This document shows, one piece after another, positions 1,925 to 8,616 of a DNA stretch of 57,431 bases (position 1 is the first letter of the stretch; each line of letters opens with the position of its first letter). Location of the stretch: the NCBI GenBank assembly GCA_037139975.1, contig JBAXFJ010000004.1, positions 1 through 57,431 of the forward strand, given 5' to 3'. The notes under the pieces are model-generated. The model searched no databases. It was not told the origin of the DNA and saw only the letters and a program-made list of their open reading frames with translations. A program made the position numbers and the translations under genes. Origin of the DNA: a bacterium. Lineage in GTDB: Bacteria; Patescibacteriota; Minisyncoccia; Phycocordibacterales; SBAW01.

Positions 1925-2043
1925 ATTAGATATAGTAAGGTTAATTTGTATGAGACTATCATATGATATTTTAGTATATTTTGCAAGTTTTTCTACACAG
2001 GCCGCTTCTGTTGCATAGCTAAACGCATGCTACTATTGGGCGT

Positions 2044-3093
2044 ATGACAAACCAATTTCACACTTTTTTTACTCATGCGGCGCAGGTATTCTCGATGGGC
2101 TCGGTCGCGATGCCCGCAGCGGTGGGCAACGCGGTCCGCTACGGTGCGCATGTGCCGCACAGCCACCACTTCTCCAGCCTCTTTTTTATGCTACTCGGGG
2201 TGGTAGTTATTGTCCTCTCGCTCGCACTCTTGATTATTGTTTCAAAGTGGCGAATATTTGAAAAAGCAAAACAACCCGGCTGGGCCACTCTGGTGCCTGT
2301 GTATGGCAGCGTTAAATTGCTCGAAATTACCTCACGTCCGTTATGGTGGGTCGTGCTTTTGTTTATTCCGCTGGTCAACCTTGTCGTCGGCATCACTCTG
2401 GTGTATCGCCTTGCGCGCAACTTTGGCAAGAATGGGTGGTTTGCTCTCGGGCTCGTCTGTCTCCCATTCATCTTTTACCCCATGCTTGCTTTTGGTAAGG
2501 CTGAGTATAAAAACACCTTCCCCAAGCCCAGCCCTATGAGTGAGGCCGTCAAATGGACGTTGATTGGGTTGCTCGCGTGGGCGATAGTGTTTGGAATGAT
2601 GTTGGCCATGGGCGCTGGCTCTGGGCGCCCCGTGCGGCTCCAGGTGCTCTCTGATGCATACGCAACCGACGGAACATATGTATATATGTATGACCACCCT
2701 ATTTTTGATGCCGACCCTGCAACCTTCGAGATACTCGGCAGTGACGGGGGTGATTACGCCAAAGATTGGGGTCATGTCTATTATGACGGCACTGTGCTCA
2801 CCAGCGTGCAGTACCCTGAGTCGTTCCGCCTGCTTGATTCGATATACGCGCGAGACGATACGCAGGTATATCATGACGGCGAGGTGGTGTCCTGTGATGC
2901 AAACTCATTCCGAGTCCTCTCGCCTGAGAGTGGGTATGCAGAGGATGCTGGCTCTGTGTATTACGAGGGCGCTCCTGTGGTGGGTGCCGACCGCGCTACT
3001 TTTGTAGTAAAGAATGGCGATTTGAGCCCGTATGTCTCCTATGATGCAAAAGATGCAAAGCATTACTACGAGGGCGGGGAGCTTGTGAAATAA
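2044..3093 (+). CDS. Membrane protein: DUF5684-like TM domain plus DKNYY-like repeat domain
   Basis: WRIFEKAKQPGWATLVPVY..LARNFGK; repeated YAKD/YARD/YAED..VYY.G and ADPATF motifs. Confidence 0.7.
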   Translation: MTNQFHTFFTHAAQVFSMGSVAMPAAVGNAVRYGAHVPHSHHFSSLFFMLLGVVVIVLSLALLIIVSKWRIFEKAKQPGWATLVPVYGSVKLLEITSRPLWWVVLLFIPLVNLVVGITLVYRLARNFGKNGWFALGLVCLPFIFYPMLAFGKAEYKNTFPKPSPMSEAVKWTLIGLLAWAIVFGMMLAMGAGSGRPVRLQVLSDAYATDGTYVYMYDHPIFDADPATFEILGSDGGDYAKDWGHVYYDGTVLTSVQYPESFRLLDSIYARDDTQVYHDGEVVSCDANSFRVLSPESGYAEDAGSVYYEGAPVVGADRATFVVKNGDLSPYVSYDAKDAKHYYEGGELVK

Positions 3094-3099
3094 AATAAG

Positions 3100-3128
3100 T
3101 TGAAAAGCAGTCAAAAATAGGCTACTGT
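3100..3128 (+). promoter_or_regulatory. Possible promoter for the tRNA pair
   Basis: TTGAAA-N17-TACTGT. Confidence 0.4.
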
Positions 3129-3173
3129 TGGAGGCGTGCGCGTTGCTCTCTGTTTCGTTAGGGCGAGCATAAC

Positions 3174-3246
3174 GCCGTTGTAGCTCAGCTGGTAGAGCAG
3201 CTCCATGGTAAGGAGCAGGTCGTCGGTTCAATCCCGACCAACGGCT
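3174..3246 (+). tRNA. tRNA-Thr(GGT)
   Basis: Acceptor stem gccgttg/caacggc, D-arm tagctcag..ggtagagc, anticodon loop atGGTaa, T-loop ttcaatc. Confidence 0.95.
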
Positions 3247-3286
3247 CACGGTTCCAAGAAGAACCCGAGTGTCTGTGCGTGTGCGC

Positions 3287-3359
3287 GCCGAGGTAGCTCA
3301 GTTGGTAGAGCGAGGGTATCGTAAACCCTAGGTCGCCGGTCCGATCCCGGCCCTCGGCT
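3287..3359 (+). tRNA. tRNA-Thr(CGT), integration target
   Basis: Acceptor stem gccgagg/cctcggc, anticodon stem agggt/accct with loop atCGTaa; T-loop tccgatc (non-canonical C at 55). Confidence 0.9.
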
Positions 3360-4848
3360 CAAGTTTCAAACTCAAAGGGGTGTCGCCGCCGGAAATGCGC
3401 GCGGCGCGAAGCGCCGCGTAGGGGGGAATGGGGTTTCCGCGCGCTTCGCGCGCGTGGATTGAGAGGTTCAATCCGAAAACTTTTTGGAGGGGGGATTTTT
3501 TGGAGGGGAGGTCGCTCGATTTCGCTATTTCATCAAGGCGCGAAGCGCCCAAAATCCAATTTCGGACAGGTTCAACCCACGCGGCAGGGGCTTGTTCCAA
3601 ACGCACGATTTGTTCCTCAATCGTGCGGCGTTCGCTGACAAGCGAGCGGCGGCGGGACAAATATTCTTCGCGCTCCAGGTCTTCGGCCACGTATAAATCC
3701 GTCAGGCGCACGTTAGTACGCGAAATCTCTTCAATCTTGGCCTGTAGACCGTGCACGGCCTCTGCTGCTGTTTTGGACGCGTCAGCGGCCTCAGCGTCGA
3801 GCAGTTTAGTGAGCGGCGCTGTCCACTCCTGTGGCATGGCGTACTCGCCAAGAAGCGACGAAAGCTGCGAGTTCAATAACTCGCTGCGCACTGGCACTTC
3901 TGTGCATTTCACAGATTTATTTTTGCGCGTACAGCGGTAATAGGTGTAATGGTGAACATTGCCGTTCAACTGATGCTTCTCTCTAACTTCGGCCGTGATT
4001 GCCATGTTGCACGAACCGCATCGCAGGAGGCCGCAATACGGCGCGGGGTCGGTTTTGATTGCGAGCCTTCGGCCACGTCCGTGCAAAACCACGCTTACTT
4101 TGTCAAAAAGCGATTTTGAAATGAGCGGCGTATGCGTCCCTTCATATAGTTCGTTCGCGTAGCGGAAGTGACCGTAGTAAAACGGATTTTGCAAAATAAA
4201 TGAGATGCGCGAAATGTGGACGCGGCGATTGCCTTTAGACATCACGCCCGCGTTTTCTAGCCACGTCGCCAGCGCATCAAGCGTCGTCGTTCTGCTCGCG
4301 TACTTTTCAAACATCTCGCGCACGAGAGAGGCATTTTTATTGTGGACGTGAATGGTCTTGGTGCGCGGGTCGTTGAGGTAGCCGATAGGGGCGAGGCCGG
4401 GATAAATACCTTGCCGCGCTTTCTGCCGAAGGCCGCGAGAAGTATTCGCGCTCAACTGGCGTATATACTCATTCGCCATACCGAGTTCGACTGACATCAT
4501 CAACACATTGTCGTTCGGATAGTGCGAGCGGTCGTGCGTTTGGATATGACGAATGACGCCCTGTTGCAAAAGCCACTGCACTTGTCCGCCATCGACTGGA
4601 TTGCGCGCGAGGCGATCAATCTCCCAGCAAATGATGCCTTGTGCCTCGCCGCGCCCAATGCGCGACATCATGTCGTTGAATATCGCGCGACCCGGAATCT
4701 TTGCGGATTTCTTTTCGACAAACTCCTCCACAATTTCCAAATTGTCGCGCCTCGCAAGCGCGCGAAGTTCGGTAAGCTGCGCTTCGATAGACAAAATCTG
4801 TTTGTCCTCAACATCGGTAGATTTTCTAGCGTAAAGAAAATACTTCAT
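3328..4848 (-). CDS. Large serine recombinase (resolvase + recombinase + Zn-ribbon + coiled coil)
   Basis: YARKS catalytic motif, DRLAR, PIGY, CGSC..YYRC zinc ribbon; the last codons run antisense through tRNA-Thr(CGT). Confidence 0.95.
   Translation of the reverse strand: MKYFLYARKSTDVEDKQILSIEAQLTELRALARRDNLEIVEEFVEKKSAKIPGRAIFNDMMSRIGRGEAQGIICWEIDRLARNPVDGGQVQWLLQQGVIRHIQTHDRSHYPNDNVLMMSVELGMANEYIRQLSANTSRGLRQKARQGIYPGLAPIGYLNDPRTKTIHVHNKNASLVREMFEKYASRTTTLDALATWLENAGVMSKGNRRVHISRISFILQNPFYYGHFRYANELYEGTHTPLISKSLFDKVSVVLHGRGRRLAIKTDPAPYCGLLRCGSCNMAITAEVREKHQLNGNVHHYTYYRCTRKNKSVKCTEVPVRSELLNSQLSSLLGEYAMPQEWTAPLTKLLDAEAADASKTAAEAVHGLQAKIEEISRTNVRLTDLYVAEDLEREEYLSRRRSLVSERRTIEEQIVRLEQAPAAWVEPVRNWILGASRLDEIAKSSDLPSKKSPLQKVFGLNLSIHAREARGNPIPPYAALRAARISGGDTPLSLKLEPRAGIGPAT
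3358..3509. repeat. Inverted repeat arm A (recombinase 3' coding end); partner 4998-5151
   Basis: Aligns to the reverse complement of 4998-5151 with a long identical core and several substitutions/indels. Confidence 0.9.
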
Positions 4849-4875
4849 ATCTCAAATATCATACCGCATTTCGGG

Positions 4876-4958
4876 GGGAGCCATCCCCGTCGTTTTACAA
4901 TGTTCCTCAAAACGGCGAGGGATGGACTACTCGTGCGCGCATGGGCGGGTGGGGCAAA
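4876..4958. repeat. Direct repeat R1 with hairpin, upstream of the recombinase; partner 6538-6613
   Basis: gggagccatccccg.cgtttta..aaaacggcg.ggatg..gtgcgc..ggggcaaa shared by both copies. Confidence 0.8.
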
Positions 4959-4997
4959 GCACTCCACTATGTATTTATGGATTCCTGCATTTGCATT

Positions 4998-5209
4998 TCC
5001 CCTCCAAAACCCCCTCCAAAAAGTTTTCGGATTTTGTATTTTCTGAACCTCCTCCACGCGCGAAGCGCGCGGAAACCCCATTCCCCCCTACGCGGCGCTT
5101 CGCGCCGCGCGTATTTCCGGCGGCGAAACCCCTCTTGCTTTGAAACTGGAGTCTCTATTGTACTCCGCTAGAACCTACTTTAGCAAAAATCTCGATTGAC
5201 TCGCACGCG
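4998..5209 (+). pseudogene. Remnant 3' end of a paralogous serine recombinase (arm B) containing an intact attP-like junction
   Basis: Translates EARGNPIPPYAALRAARISGGETPLALKLESLLYSARTYFSKNLD*; indels upstream; no N-terminal part. Confidence 0.75.
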
Positions 5210-5394
5210 CCGAGCGCGTGGTGGCTTTGACCTAAATCGTACGCTCCGATTGGGTGGTGGTGCAAGGAATCCCGCCCACCGCGCGGAGTACCGCGCGTCC
5301 CGCCCTCTCGCCTTGCCGCTCCTCTCCATGCTGATTTTTTGCGGGGGGGGGATTTGAAAAAAGGAATGGGCGGCAAAGGCGAGGGGCGGCTTCC
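5145..5394. repeat. 250-bp inverted repeat, left copy (arm D)
   Basis: No mismatch found by eye against the reverse complement of 6706-6955; the ORF track gives the same peptide on opposite strands. Confidence 0.95.
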
Positions 5395-5476
5395 ACTGTT
5401 CACATCTATAAATTGCATGAAGAACGTGGTATTATGTGCATAAGTTTTATTAACAATTGTCCCCACCTTTTTACTT

Positions 5477-6499
5477 ATGCAAAATCAACGAGGATTCGTC
5501 GGTGTCGGTATTTTGATAGCCATAGTGCTCGGTTTGATTGTCCTCGGAGGTGGGGCATATTACGTCATACACCAGCAATCGTCCTCGTCAGCTCTCTCGG
5601 ATAATACTTTGGACAATTCGCAAACTTTGCCGACAAAAAATAATCAGGCGCAAACTACGGCAAATACGCCAACCTCAAAACCATCTGTTACGCTTACTCT
5701 ACCAAAAAGCGGTACGCAGGTTCCTTATGGCGGCAATTTGCAGATTAGTTGGCATACAGCCAATGTTCCGACGAACGCAAAGGTGCTGTTCTACTTGAAC
5801 GAGCCAGCGGATTTCAAGGATGTCGGTCCGATTGATCCGGTTGGGTCAGCAAATGCCGCTGATGGTAGTTATACGTGGCATGTTGATTTGACTGATTGCA
5901 CGGGTTCTGGCTGTAGCACCATCGAGTCTGGAAAATCCTATACATTAACGATAAAAGTAGGAACGCCTCAAGATACAACCAACTGTAACACACATTGCGG
6001 AAATTGGTTTGATTCAATCGCAGAAGCTACAAGTAATTCTTTCATAATTACCAATGGCGCGTCTGCGTCTGCGAATTGGCAAACGTATAGAAGTACAAAT
6101 GGATTCGAAATACAATATCCGCCGAACTGGATTGAACAAGAACATGGTGACGGCCATTCGTCTTTCGGTTTTGTCGCCGCCTTTGGTCAAAAACCTTTCG
6201 GTCCAGATGGATATGACGGCGAACTTTTTGTCGTTGGAAATGATTTTACGAGCACCGAACAATTCATCGCGCAAATGGGCAAGCAATTTGGCGACAGACA
6301 AGAAAAAAGAGAAAGTATTAGTGTAAATGGTCTGTCTGCGCTCAAAGTTACTGTTACTACCCCTTCTATACCGAGTTGGATTTTCAAAGCCGTTATAATC
6401 AAGCGACTTGATCGACCCGATGAGATTTACTTCATTCATAATGGTGCGATTCAGAGCAATGACTTCGAAAAATTCTACGGAAGTTTCAAGCTTATTTAG
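5477..6499 (+). CDS. Membrane-anchored surface protein with a pilin-like N-terminus
   Basis: MQNQRGF + hydrophobic helix, S/T/Q linker, Ig-like beta domain with Cys pairs, PsbP-like WQTY..GFEIQYP.NW C-terminal domain; visibly more AT-rich than the flanks. Confidence 0.75.
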   Translation: MQNQRGFVGVGILIAIVLGLIVLGGGAYYVIHQQSSSSALSDNTLDNSQTLPTKNNQAQTTANTPTSKPSVTLTLPKSGTQVPYGGNLQISWHTANVPTNAKVLFYLNEPADFKDVGPIDPVGSANAADGSYTWHVDLTDCTGSGCSTIESGKSYTLTIKVGTPQDTTNCNTHCGNWFDSIAEATSNSFIITNGASASANWQTYRSTNGFEIQYPPNWIEQEHGDGHSSFGFVAAFGQKPFGPDGYDGELFVVGNDFTSTEQFIAQMGKQFGDRQEKRESISVNGLSALKVTVTTPSIPSWIFKAVIIKRLDRPDEIYFIHNGAIQSNDFEKFYGSFKLI

Positions 6500-6537
6500 C
6501 TTGTGCGCGCTTCGCGCACGCTTGAATGTTTCCACTA

Positions 6538-6613
6538 GGGAGCCATCCCCGCCGTTTTATAATTTTTCCTAAAACGGCGGGGATGATGTGTGCGCACGGG
6601 TGGGAGGGGCAAA
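6538..6613. repeat. Direct repeat R1' with a perfect 16-bp hairpin
   Basis: catccccgccgtttta (6544-6559) pairs with taaaacggcggggatg (6570-6585). Confidence 0.8.
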
Positions 6614-6705
6614 CACATATAGATTTTGCGCCTCGCCATTCCTTAAAGAATTTTGCATGGCGAGGCACCGCTTGTATTTGAATCACACCCTTCCTTTTCC
6701 TAAAA

Positions 6706-6955
6706 GGAAGCCGCCCCTCGCCTTTGCCGCCCATTCCTTTTTTCAAATCCCCCCCCCGCAAAAAATCAGCATGGAGAGGAGCGGCAAGGCGAGAGGGCGG
6801 GACGCGCGGTACTCCGCGCGGTGGGCGGGATTCCTTGCACCACCACCCAATCGGAGCGTACGATTTAGGTCAAAGCCACCACGCGCTCGGCGCGTGCGAG
6901 TCAATCGAGATTTTTGCTAAAGTAGGTTCTAGCGGAGTACAATAGAGACTCCAGT
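6706..6955. repeat. 250-bp inverted repeat, right copy (arm C), ending at attR
   Basis: Reverse complement of 5145-5394. Confidence 0.95.
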
Positions 6956-6981
6956 ATTGTGCAAGGGTGGCTATTTAGAAT

Positions 6982-7869
6982 ATGGAAAAAGCCGAGATAG
7001 AAAAAAGAATTGGGGAGATTGAGACGGCGATGGGAGCGTCTGACTTTTGGACTGATAAAAACAAAGCGCAAAGCCTTGTGCACGAACTCAAAGATTTAAA
7101 AGAAGAGGCAGAGCATGGTGGCGGCGCAAATTTTGATAGAGGCAACGCTATTCTCTCTATCGTATCTGGCGCGGGTGGCGACGACGCCGAGGATTTCGCA
7201 CAAATGCTTTTAGGGATGTATCGTAAATTTTTAGAGGGCCGTGGTTGGGGGTATAAGGTGTTGCACGAAAACAGGAACGACCATGGCGGCTATCGCAACC
7301 TCTCTATCGAAGTAGAAGGCAAGGGTGCATACGGCACACTAAAAAACGAATACGGCGTGCATCGACTTGTGCGCATCTCGCCGTTTAATGCCAATCAAAA
7401 AAGACAGACGTCGTTTGTGCTGGTCGAAGTCTTGCCAGTCTTTGCAAAAGTGGGTAGTTTTGATTTGCCTGAAAGCGAGCTCGAGATTAGCTTTGCGCGC
7501 TCGGGCGGCCCCGGTGGGCAGAACGTGAACAAGCGCGAGACGGCGGTGCGCGTGGTGCATGTGGCGACCGGCATCTCGGCCCACGTTGACGGCGAAAGGA
7601 CGCAAGGTGCCAACAAAGAAAAAGCAATCGCGATAGTCAAAGCAAAGCTCGCGCACTTTTTGGAAGCGCAGCGCAAAGAAAAAATCTCGGACCTCTCAAC
7701 TGATACCAATAAGATAGAGTGGGGAAGTCAAATTCGCTCGTATGTCCTCCACCCCTACAAACTCGTCAAAGACCACCGCAGCGGCGTCGAAGTCCACGAC
7801 GCCGAGTCGGTCCTCGACGGCAACCTCGAACCGTTTTTAGAACAGAAAGGAGGAAAAGAGACAGAGTAG
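6982..7869 (+). CDS. prfB: Peptide chain release factor 2 (short form)
   Basis: GGPGGQNVNK, HRLVRISPF (SPF motif), WGSQIRSYVLHPY. Confidence 0.93.
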   Translation: MEKAEIEKRIGEIETAMGASDFWTDKNKAQSLVHELKDLKEEAEHGGGANFDRGNAILSIVSGAGGDDAEDFAQMLLGMYRKFLEGRGWGYKVLHENRNDHGGYRNLSIEVEGKGAYGTLKNEYGVHRLVRISPFNANQKRQTSFVLVEVLPVFAKVGSFDLPESELEISFARSGGPGGQNVNKRETAVRVVHVATGISAHVDGERTQGANKEKAIAIVKAKLAHFLEAQRKEKISDLSTDTNKIEWGSQIRSYVLHPYKLVKDHRSGVEVHDAESVLDGNLEPFLEQKGGKETE

Positions 7870-7935
7870 CCATTTCTTTTGTTCATAAACCCATTTTGCA
7901 TAGTTGGCGCGCGGGGGTACAATAGGTGGGTTGCT

Positions 7936-8616
7936 ATGATCTACTATGACCGGGTGAGTAAAATATATGCCGACAGCTCGGTTGCGCTCGAGGACGTTTC
8001 GTTCTCAGTCGAGCCGGGTGAATTCATCTCCATTGTTGGGCACTCGGGCGCGGGCAAGACGACACTTGTCAAAATGCTTCTCGCTGAAGAGAAGCCCTCA
8101 TCTGGCTCGGTCTTTTTTGAATCGATAAATGTGCACGAAGTACCATTGTCTCACGTGGGTGAGCTGCGTCGCAAAATCGGCACTGTCTTTCAAGACTTCA
8201 AACTCCTGCCCCAAAAGACCGCCTACGAAAACATCGCGTTCGCGATGGAAGCTGCTGGCCGTCCCGAGGCAGAGATCCACTCTGATGTGCCGCACGTGCT
8301 CAACTTGGTCGACTTGGGCGACAAGATGAACCACTTTCCTGGAGAGATGTCGGGTGGCGAACAGCAGCGCGTGGCCATCGCGCGCGCCATCGTCAACCAA
8401 CCCGACGTGATTGTCGCCGACGAGCCAACGGGCAACCTTGACCCGGTCAACACATTCGAAATCGTTCAAATCCTCAAAAAAATCAACGACCTGGGCACTA
8501 CTATTATATTAACGACTCACAACAAAGGCGTCATCGACGCACTCAAGAAGCGCGTTATCACCATGGACCGCGGCAAAGTCATCCGCGACGACCGCGAAGG
8601 AAAGTATATTTTGTAA
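7936..8616 (+). CDS. ftsE: Cell division ABC ATPase FtsE
   Basis: [40 protein letters not shown]; upstream of ftsX. Confidence 0.92.

Follow-up and report, generated by a model that had tools for sequence, protein, structure and literature searches.

Sequence evidence for an attachment site inside the recombinase gene of a tRNA-targeting serine-recombinase element from Patescibacteria

Introduction

In archaeal elements of the SSV type, attP lies inside the gene for the element's own tyrosine integrase, tRNA genes are the targets, and the integrase product is changed by integration. In the mycobacteriophages BPs and Brujita, which show integration-dependent immunity and also use a tyrosine integrase, attP lies in the repressor gene, and integration alters the C-terminus of the repressor and its activity or stability. 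C-termini are also swapped by invertible segments such as the G segment of Mu with its recombinase Gin, the Cin system of P1 and the R64 shufflon, where the recombinase gene lies outside the segment and a tail fibre or pilin varies, while the 2-micron plasmid with its recombinase Flp is an inverted-repeat circle. Here we analyse a 3.6-kb element in a stretch of 57,431 nucleotides (the window: contig JBAXFJ010000004.1 of assembly GCA_037139975.1, here contig C4 of a 758-kb, 96%-complete genome, G000, of which contigs C1, C2, C7 and C10 are also cited below), in which attP lies within the gene of a large serine recombinase (LSR), so that integration rewrites the C-terminus of the recombinase itself. 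Taxon names on the homologues of this protein place the relatives in Patescibacteria/Paceibacterota.

The element shares with the SSV type an att site in its own recombinase gene and a tRNA target, but it uses serine rather than tyrosine catalysis, and only the last 15 residues of its recombinase are exchanged, with a spare copy kept, whereas the SSV gene is split in two. It works like the self-partitioning integrases of the SSV type, and like the integration-dependent switches of phages, without being a member of either group. As in BPs and Brujita, attP lies in a coding sequence; here, however, the recombinase edits itself, whereas there it is the repressor that is affected. With the invertible segments and the 2-micron plasmid the element has in common inverted sites that bracket segments, alternative 3' coding ends and a circle that would carry two sites, but it differs from them in that the bracketed segment is the recombinase gene itself, with arms of 150-430 nt, and in that a single orientation of the LSR module is seen. 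Because the LSR lies inside its own segment in a single orientation, and the cargo alone is found both ways round, we do not class the element as an invertase-type switch (Gin/Hin, shufflon), nor, with a serine-family integrase and no displaced tRNA fragment at the far end, as an Islander-type tRNA island.

The enzyme is built like SPbeta SprA and the Bxb1, phiC31 and Listeria A118/LI integrases, with a catalytic domain, a recombinase domain and a zinc ribbon into which a coiled coil is inserted, and as with these phage large serine integrases the crossover identity is very short and hybrid junctions are formed. It differs from them in its target, which is a tRNA gene's extreme 3' end, in an attP core that forms a codon of the integrase, in having a second, inverted attP inside the element, and in lacking a candidate directionality factor; array junctions may also reflect pairings beyond attP x attB. 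A small cargo-carrying element with a single LSR is also seen in the Tn4451/Tn5397 type (TnpX, TndX), in which, according to those passages of PMC5704250 that treat them, both directions are catalysed by one LSR without a directionality factor. The same passages have serine-recombinase elements inserting within protein genes or with low specificity, and from the elements described there the present one is set apart by its tRNA target, its ORF-spanning site and its internal inverted site. Serine-family integrases were not known to target tRNA genes according to a 2014 database paper, and in the full-text literature that we searched, supplementary files aside, we found no tRNA-targeting LSR, no attP inside an LSR gene, and no repeat layout or internal inverted attP of the kind reported here.

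Results

The recombinase gene and its two C-termini

The features that define the attachment site and the gene that contains it are as follows.

3328-4848, minus strand: large serine recombinase (LSR), 506 aa, with Pfam domains PF00239 Resolvase, PF07508 Recombinase and PF13408 Zn_ribbon_recom
3287-3360, plus strand: tRNA-Thr(cgt) as called by ARAGORN (3287-3359 by Rfam RF00005, 63.6 bits)
3358-3360: attL crossover core CTC, which on the LSR strand is the GAG codon of Glu497
6949-6951: attR crossover core CTC, read from the sequence

An earlier note on this DNA, made from the sequence alone, had claimed that the recombinase carries its attachment site in its own gene and has its C-terminus rewritten by integration, and both tails can indeed be read directly from the sequence. 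The junctions that it gave are present, reading ...cggCTC/aagtttc on the left and ...agagaCTC/cagtattg on the right. In the integrated state, the final 9 codons and the stop of the LSR gene (3328-3357) are antisense to the acceptor and T arms of the tRNA, and translation bears out that the open reading frame ends ...LSLKLEPRAGIGPAT before its stop, i.e. ...LKLE-PRAGIGPAT. At the right end of the element the minus strand reads ...LKLE-SLLYSARTYFSKNLD followed by a stop, in the reading frame that GAG, the complement of CTC, defines, so the in-frame fusion on circularisation that the note proposed also holds; we refer to this second ending as the native tail. The crossover core is thus the recombinase's own codon, Glu497, 15 codons ahead of the natural stop. 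These readings support the conclusion that attP lies within the gene of its own recombinase and that integration rewrites the C-terminus. The core trinucleotide occurs at three places, as CTC at 3358-3360 and 6949-6951 and as GAG at an internal site, 5149-5151; only CTC is common to both junctions and the internal site, which is compatible with a 2-bp crossover. The list of open reading frames in the 3.6 kb shows no candidate for a directionality-factor gene, as the note had also observed.

Domain and fold tests both place the enzyme among the large serine recombinases. The Pfam matches are to PF00239 (E 1.4e-19, residues 4-147), PF07508 (9.1e-15) and PF13408 (1.5e-06), and Ser10, Arg8, Asp78, Arg79 and Arg82 stand in nearly invariant alignment columns. 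Long antiparallel helices predicted by AlphaFold2 at 340-387 and 393-443 correspond to the coiled coil inserted in the zinc ribbon. A Foldseek search, for which the query was the model of an 86%-identical, native-tailed homologue rather than of the window's own protein, gave the SPbeta integrase as best match (E 8e-22) and also the Bxb1, phiC31 and LI integrases, with values to 1e-13, over nearly the full length.

The native tail is under coding constraint and is predicted to be structured

The 120 best protein homologues have 61-100% identity. The last residues of 97 of them are antisense to the T arm, typically ..LILEP..GIEP.T...CSTN with the stop in the antisense D loop; 6 have a native SARTYF-type tail (..LE-SLLYSARTYFSEHSN and similar), and 17 are truncated or otherwise different at the C-terminus. 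The earlier note had looked to homologue C-termini for a SARTYF-like tail, and these six have one. Native-tailed proteins are scattered among the tRNA-tailed ones, and their closest neighbours (73-92% identity) are tRNA-tailed. A separate attempt to count native tails by a search with the C-terminal region returned only 10 candidates.

Further information comes from the internal site, at which a spare copy of the end of the LSR gene is followed by a spare native tail (see below). In related loci, 26 internal sites have a spare copy that continues in frame into the motif S/C-L-L-x-x-x-R-T-Y/H-F, with a stop 5-8 codons on. Summed over 15 tail codons at these sites, the entropy by codon position is 10.5 / 7.1 / 12.6, and the tails show synonymous changes, with Arg as AGA or CGA and Leu as TTG, TTA, CTA or CTT. 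Within the genome, the tail motif is kept at 9/9 sites scanned, in units whose LSR paralogues are 33-78% identical.

AlphaFold2 models of the two forms, built with the same 27 companion sequences, differ at the C-terminus. The model of the native-tailed homologue (86% identical to the window protein) has a mean pLDDT of 83.8 and a last helix at 492-509, which spans the crossover residue Glu497 and has block pLDDT values of 92 and 86. The model of the window protein has no helix past residue 487; its last four blocks have pLDDT values of 68, 59, 53 and 43, and the range is 43-59 over residues 481-506. Since the helix is present in the one model and absent from the other, integration would swap two thirds of the confidently predicted terminal helix for a proline-led, disordered peptide. 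Our conclusion from codon patterns and models together is that the native tail is under coding constraint, which is supported by these data, and that it is predicted to be part of a structured, amphipathic terminal helix (..LE-SLLxxxRTYF..). The C-terminus of SprA could not be aligned to the tail by sequence, as the profile match ends at position 412.

The element is an insertion between tRNA-Thr(cgt) and prfB

Two neighbouring genes help to define the insertion site.

3174-3247: tRNA-Thr(ggt), called by ARAGORN and Rfam
6982-7869, plus strand: prfB, peptide chain release factor 2 family (Pfam PCRF 1.1e-39, RF-1 2.9e-31), syntenic with tRNA-Thr in relatives

The attachment site takes its B half from the 3' end of tRNA-Thr(cgt), a gene that remains whole, with its encoded CCA changed to CAA. 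The element has pushed prfB 3.6 kb away from it. When base 3360 is joined to base 6952 the tRNA ends in ggct-CCA, as encoded by the tRNA-Thr genes of relatives, and stands 28 nt upstream of the prfB ATG (6982), so that removal of 3361-6951 restores the tRNA end before prfB in the way that the earlier note had proposed.

The note had also suggested seeking an empty tRNA-Thr/prfB site in relatives. We searched for prfB in the genomes of 40 relatives and took 29 loci, in 15 of which (14 of the same genus) the end of an ARAGORN-called tRNA-Thr(cgt) lies 0-43 nt upstream of the prfB start; in a sixteenth locus, cut by a contig end, the tRNA end is alike by eye. In the remaining 13 loci this tRNA lies 130-1100 nt upstream (5) or on the opposite strand (2), the upstream sequence amounts to at most 66 nt (2), or the available sequence does not contain it (4). 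A blastn search of the relatives' prfB loci for sequence like 3361-6951 gave zero matches. Contigs assembled independently from the source run bridge both junctions (2000-3427 and 6926-8379) at single-copy depth, and the depth in that run is 67-93 for the element vs 75-82 for the flanks. The empty sites in relatives, together with bridging contigs at matching depth, confirm 3361-6951 as an insertion between tRNA-Thr(cgt) and prfB, including its borders and the restored tRNA end. Thus both of the things that the note expected to find among relatives, the joined tRNA-Thr and prfB genes and homologues with a SARTYF-type tail, were found. As to prfB itself, it is a single ORF of 295 aa in the window, with a PCRF match that starts at profile position 97 of 194, and the best prfB matches of 4/39 relatives have one or two in-frame TAA stops.

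Two pairs of inverted repeats and a second, inverted attP

The layout of the region is tRNA, P', LSR gene, inverted P', core, inverted P, cargo, P, prfB. Its parts are two inverted-repeat pairs (IR-a and IR-b) and the sites that they form.

3358-3509: IR-a, P' arm, encoding LSR residues ~447-497, the sub-domain past the coiled coil
4998-5151: IR-a', inverted spare of the LSR 3' end, with 75% identity to residues 451-498 and with a 13-nt insertion and an in-frame TGA upstream
5125-5175, minus strand: internal complete attP (P-core-P'), inverted, with core GAG at 5149-5151
5152-5199, plus strand: spare native tail SLLYSARTYFSKNLD and stop, in frame with the spare C-terminal copy
5145-5394: IR-b, inner P arm, containing the tail codons and a conserved hairpin block (5201-5263)
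6706-6955: IR-b', outer P arm, whose minus strand has the native tail at 6904-6948 and its stop at 6901-6903

The IR-a pair brackets the LSR module and the IR-b pair the cargo module. By inverted-repeat search the IR-a core (3358-3452 / 5057-5151) is 93% complementary, and blastn extends the pair to 3358-3509 / 4998-5151 at 85% over 158 nt, while the IR-b pair (5145-5394 / 6706-6955) is 100% complementary over 250 nt. IR-a' and IR-b overlap at 5145-5151, and therefore the internal junction, read on the minus strand, is a complete attP. From 5053 the plus strand reads ...REARGNPIPPYAALRAARISGGETPLALKLE-SLLYSARTYFSKNLD and a stop, that is, the last ~50 recombinase codons and the native tail; this spare tail copy is separated from any start by the 13-nt insertion and the TGA. 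The att ends that the earlier note had assigned to the element therefore stand, but its picture of a simple attL-body-attR unit does not, given the second, inverted attP and the two inverted-repeat pairs. As this second site lies inside the element, an excised circle would carry two inverted attP sites.

In the contigs of the source run, the unitig depth of IR-b is ~144-149 vs 67-93 for its neighbours, about double, so both copies are real; with the diverged IR-b pairs (93-99% identity) seen in other assemblies, this led us to reject an assembler artefact. The IR-a arms evolve in concert, with a mean identity of 0.93 within a pair vs 0.77-0.79 between elements. Two other ideas about this arrangement were considered and rejected. 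That each bracketed module is an independent cassette with a palindromic site is contradicted by the scored internal sites, of which 26/26 join a spare LSR end to a P arm with an in-frame tail. The element is also not a fossil with a mutated attL core, since CTT-GAG and CTG-GAG are synonymous Leu-Glu variants that are both common in relatives.

Cargo, conserved blocks and a promoter-like site

The remaining features of the element are the cargo gene and two copies of a direct repeat, which we call Block A.

5477-6499, plus strand: cargo ORF, 340 aa, with a hydrophobic N-terminal stretch (by eye)
4876-4958: Block A, short copy, hairpin-bearing, just upstream of the LSR start
6538-6700: Block A, long copy, at the far end of the cargo module

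The cargo ORF has weak Ig-like Pfam matches, Big_7 (1.7e-4) and Kre9_KNH (3.5e-3), both under the curated cut-offs. Block A is a conserved non-coding stretch of 80-160 nt with a 16-bp hairpin that has TATAAT in its loop, and with a second hairpin. In many of the related loci that match it, a copy stops short of the LSR start by 12-36 or ~115-122 nt, and the cargo module has a longer copy at one of its ends. Further copies in G000 are at C1:76638-76775, C1:241236-241378, C1:245065-245193, C7:4610-4704 and C10:8419-8507. An Rfam search of 3000-7400 (E up to 1) gave only the two tRNAs and two chance-level matches, and Block A matches no family there. In three other metagenome runs the summed depth of the bin that holds the long Block A copy (6420-6640) is far above that of the LSR-body bins; the contigs of those three runs hold only related repeats from other organisms.

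A second conserved hairpin, Block B (5201-5263 and 6837-6899), lies just past the stop of the native tail and occurs at 14 more places in G000. Its pairing is kept through two-sided changes (CGCACGCGC/GCGCGTG, CGCGCGC/GCGCGCG, CGCACGC/GCGTGCG), and a conserved stretch follows it. By eye, Block B is nearly identical between elements in the genome whose LSRs are only 44% identical, which suggests arm exchange between elements or a shared host factor. The P arm also contains a promoter-like site, TTGCTA-18-TACAAT (6914-6943, plus strand), which ends 6 nt before the core, has a twin at 5186-5157 on the minus strand and points outward at prfB, 39 nt downstream; the scan that found it was overall not enriched over shuffles. 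The element may by this site supply a promoter for prfB, which abuts the tRNA in relatives.

The element belongs to a large family

Ten LSR-like frames were found in the genome, 8 of them with an intact ORF and catalytic residues. Seven LSR ORFs run antisense into ARAGORN tRNA genes (Thr-cgt, Arg-gcg, Ser-gct, Gln-ttg, Asn-gtt, Arg-cct and Ser-cga), so that 7/43 tRNA genes of the genome are occupied, and two further ones run into tRNA 3' fragments within a tandem array. The layout of two modules bracketed by repeats recurs at least 7 times in the genome (contigs C1, C2 and C10) and in dozens of metagenome loci. An LSR homologue at E <= 1e-60 is present in 17/60 other genomes of the genus, and in most of the 20 genus regions examined the LSR adjoins a tRNA and has IR-a arms. 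Of 16 relatives' loci with enough flank, only 1 shows an inverted partner for the inner P arm.

A complete LSR ORF is present in 54/80 related metagenome loci, and IR-a in 32 of the metagenome loci. Most of the complete ORFs (38/54) overlap a tRNA on the opposite strand (Thr 32, Arg 2, Glu 2, Leu 1, Val 1); among the others, 6 have an antisense-tRNA-like tail without a called tRNA, 2 have a native tail and 1 has a native-like but longer tail. In an alignment of the 38 loci the junction is always at the discriminator/CCA, as ggctc/AAG.. or ggctcca/G... With the crossover at this position the tRNA stays whole and no tRNA fragment is duplicated (there is none at 6949-6955). The genome encodes a member of the CCA-adding enzyme family. 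These counts show that the element is a member of a large Patescibacteria LSR family that inserts at the extreme 3' end of tRNA genes. We dropped the idea of a phage link, for which viral contigs gave one distant match (34% identity).

The cargo of sister elements is varied. The modules at C2:44110-51849, C10:7992-11018 and C1:234079-238149 include a complete type I restriction-modification set (HsdR, HsdS, HsdM), a GTP cyclohydrolase II-methyltransferase fusion and an FAD oxidase with membrane proteins. Elements are also found in series. C1:232287-245733 is a tandem array of three LSR-plus-cargo units adjoining tRNA-Ser(gct). Between the units stands a 191-bp direct repeat (100%), at whose end is a tRNA-Ser 3' fragment that the next LSR reads into. 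In metagenome locus L122 (93-7909) there is a two-element chain at tRNA-Thr(ggt), in which the proximal LSR is tRNA-tailed and the distal LSR is intact, with a native-type tail that comes from its neighbour's P arm. The inter-element junction is of attP type, which implies integration into an occupied site. Such P-core-P' junctions between different elements, seen in L122 and on C2, point to attP x attL or attP x attR events, or to homologous exchange.

Two other arrangements stand apart. At C10:1-2022 an LSR module lies between inverted tRNA genes, a partial Arg(gcg)-like one at the contig start and Arg(cct); here an internal attP may have recombined with a second tRNA, or the contig end may be mis-joined. 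C1:74000-78348 consists of two abutting repeat-bracketed segments with no LSR gene inside, and one of the arm pairs (291 nt) is sequence from downstream of an intact tRNA-Leu(gag) rather than element sequence.

The LSR module has one orientation and the cargo module two

Free flipping of the bracketed modules should yield both orientations of each, which holds for the cargo module but not for the LSR module. The 3' end of the LSR gene faces a tRNA or tRNA fragment in 16/16 cases with IR-a arms at least 98% identical (7 from this genome, 7 from relatives and 2 from metagenomes), and no locus among those examined has a tRNA beside the spare copy. Native-tailed LSRs are found only between two flanks of attP type, as in arrays or perhaps an episome; examples are L100, L122's distal LSR and, on C2, a truncated one. 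The cargo module occurs both ways round in close relatives (80-85% DNA identity): in 3 it lies as in the window (L104, L153, L166), and in 4 it is flipped (L107, L110, L127, L164), with the 5' end of the cargo adjoining the outer arm in L107.

Discussion

Our favoured explanation, to which we give a probability of about one half on the basis of sequences and structural models, is that the native tail is needed for recombinase activity, so that integration through the in-gene attP would turn the enzyme off and lock the element in. The excised circle would have two equivalent inverted attP sites and could enter through either. If it entered via the spare site, the enzyme would keep its native tail and its activity, with a tRNA-side junction and an inverted attP as its flanks, and this active enzyme (or selection) would then invert the LSR module into the tRNA-reading state, a trap in which the tail is lost. 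The assumption that the tail is needed would thus explain the uniform orientation of the LSR module together with the mixed orientation of the cargo. A precedent is the contact made near the C-terminus of the SPbeta integrase, the closest solved relative, with its directionality factor (see below). Given the spare tail and the concerted evolution of the IR-a arms, rare re-arming by homologous flipping would be possible. We put forward only tentatively that a flip across IR-a joins the gene to the spare tail again and so re-arms the element, with no need of a directionality factor, and we are similarly doubtful, though not dismissive, of the further idea that the recombinase gene is an invertible on/off cassette for mobility, off when it reads into the tRNA and on when flipped to the spare tail. 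An enzyme switched on in this way could excise the element or flip itself back.

Several points weigh against this explanation. Most integrated copies are intact (8/10 LSR-like frames in the genome, 54/80 loci), and the tRNA-tailed enzyme could therefore still be used. According to PMC3783163, serine integrases do not recombine other att pairings, and the proposed self-inversion, attL with attP, would be one of these. The P-arm sequence that encodes the tail also matches the outward promoter-like pattern, and part of the tail's conservation could be at the DNA level. Short-read assemblies may orient segments between perfect repeats arbitrarily, although the uniform LSR orientation argues that they do resolve it. 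No circle junction, empty site or flipped form was found in the source-run contigs, which cannot show rare forms.

There are three other explanations to be considered. One, which follows the earlier note's suggestion that the tail swap may control directionality or stability and which we regard as unlikely, makes the two tails a directionality switch: the native-tailed enzyme of the circle would only integrate, the tail-less chromosomal enzyme would carry out attL x attR excision, and the position of the gene would replace a directionality factor. The lack of a directionality-factor candidate in the 3.6 kb, the mostly intact ORFs of integrated copies and the predicted loss of the tail helix upon integration all agree with this. 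So does the SPbeta integrase, in which, according to the sections of PMC11722253 that describe the complex, Phe532 near the C-terminus contacts an essential helix of the directionality factor; those sections also cite work on an 'extreme C-terminal element' of that integrase in directionality. However, an enzyme that works on hybrid sites should also use the inverted attP inside the element, so that LSR modules would point both ways, whereas their orientation is uniform; the elements accumulate (7/43 tRNAs, tandem arrays), which fits locking better than ready excision; and the replacement tails are arbitrary antisense-tRNA peptides that differ by target tRNA. We consider it about equally improbable that the arrangement is a neutral by-product, with the last 15 residues dispensable, the two isoforms alike, and the P arm simply doubling as coding sequence, the inverted repeats being kept by homologous recombination for module exchange, outward promoters or similar. 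LSR C-terminal extensions vary, and in the same sections of PMC11722253 the SPbeta maps are disordered for the last 28 residues; the promoter-like site aimed at prfB lies in the P arm, and the arms include conserved non-coding parts, Blocks A and B. Yet the tail motif is kept, with substitutions of coding type, across paralogues that are only 33-78% identical, an in-frame spare tail stands at every scorable internal site (26 loci; 9/9 in the genome), the terminal helix is predicted at pLDDT 86-92, and neutrality would leave the single orientation of the LSR module to be explained in some other way.

Far less probable than either is that the region is a host inversion switch of the shufflon kind rather than an insertion with a spare site, or that its repeats are an assembly artefact. 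It is true that the inverted repeats abut at a common core, that the cargo module is found in both orientations and that IR-b is 100% identical over 250 nt, but the region is absent from the same site in 15/29 of the relatives' loci and the family is found at many different tRNAs. Duplication by the assembler is also at odds with IR-a arms that differ (85-93% identity), with an IR-b depth twice that of its neighbours in independent source-run contigs, and with the diverged IR-b pairs of other assemblies.

For inserting large DNA in one direction, serine integrases are the main tools, and a separate protein normally determines which way they act. In the family described here, the C-terminal helix of the enzyme appears to be tied to whether the DNA is free, integrated or flipped, and the family's conserved internal inverted attP is unexplained by current serine-integrase models. 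If the tail matters, this would be a compact, self-limiting design that could be copied, and if the switch reading is true, control of a serine integrase would be written in the DNA, without a directionality factor, in a very large tRNA-targeting family of tiny-genome bacteria. These elements fill a notable share of very small genomes and matter for the gain of accessory genes.

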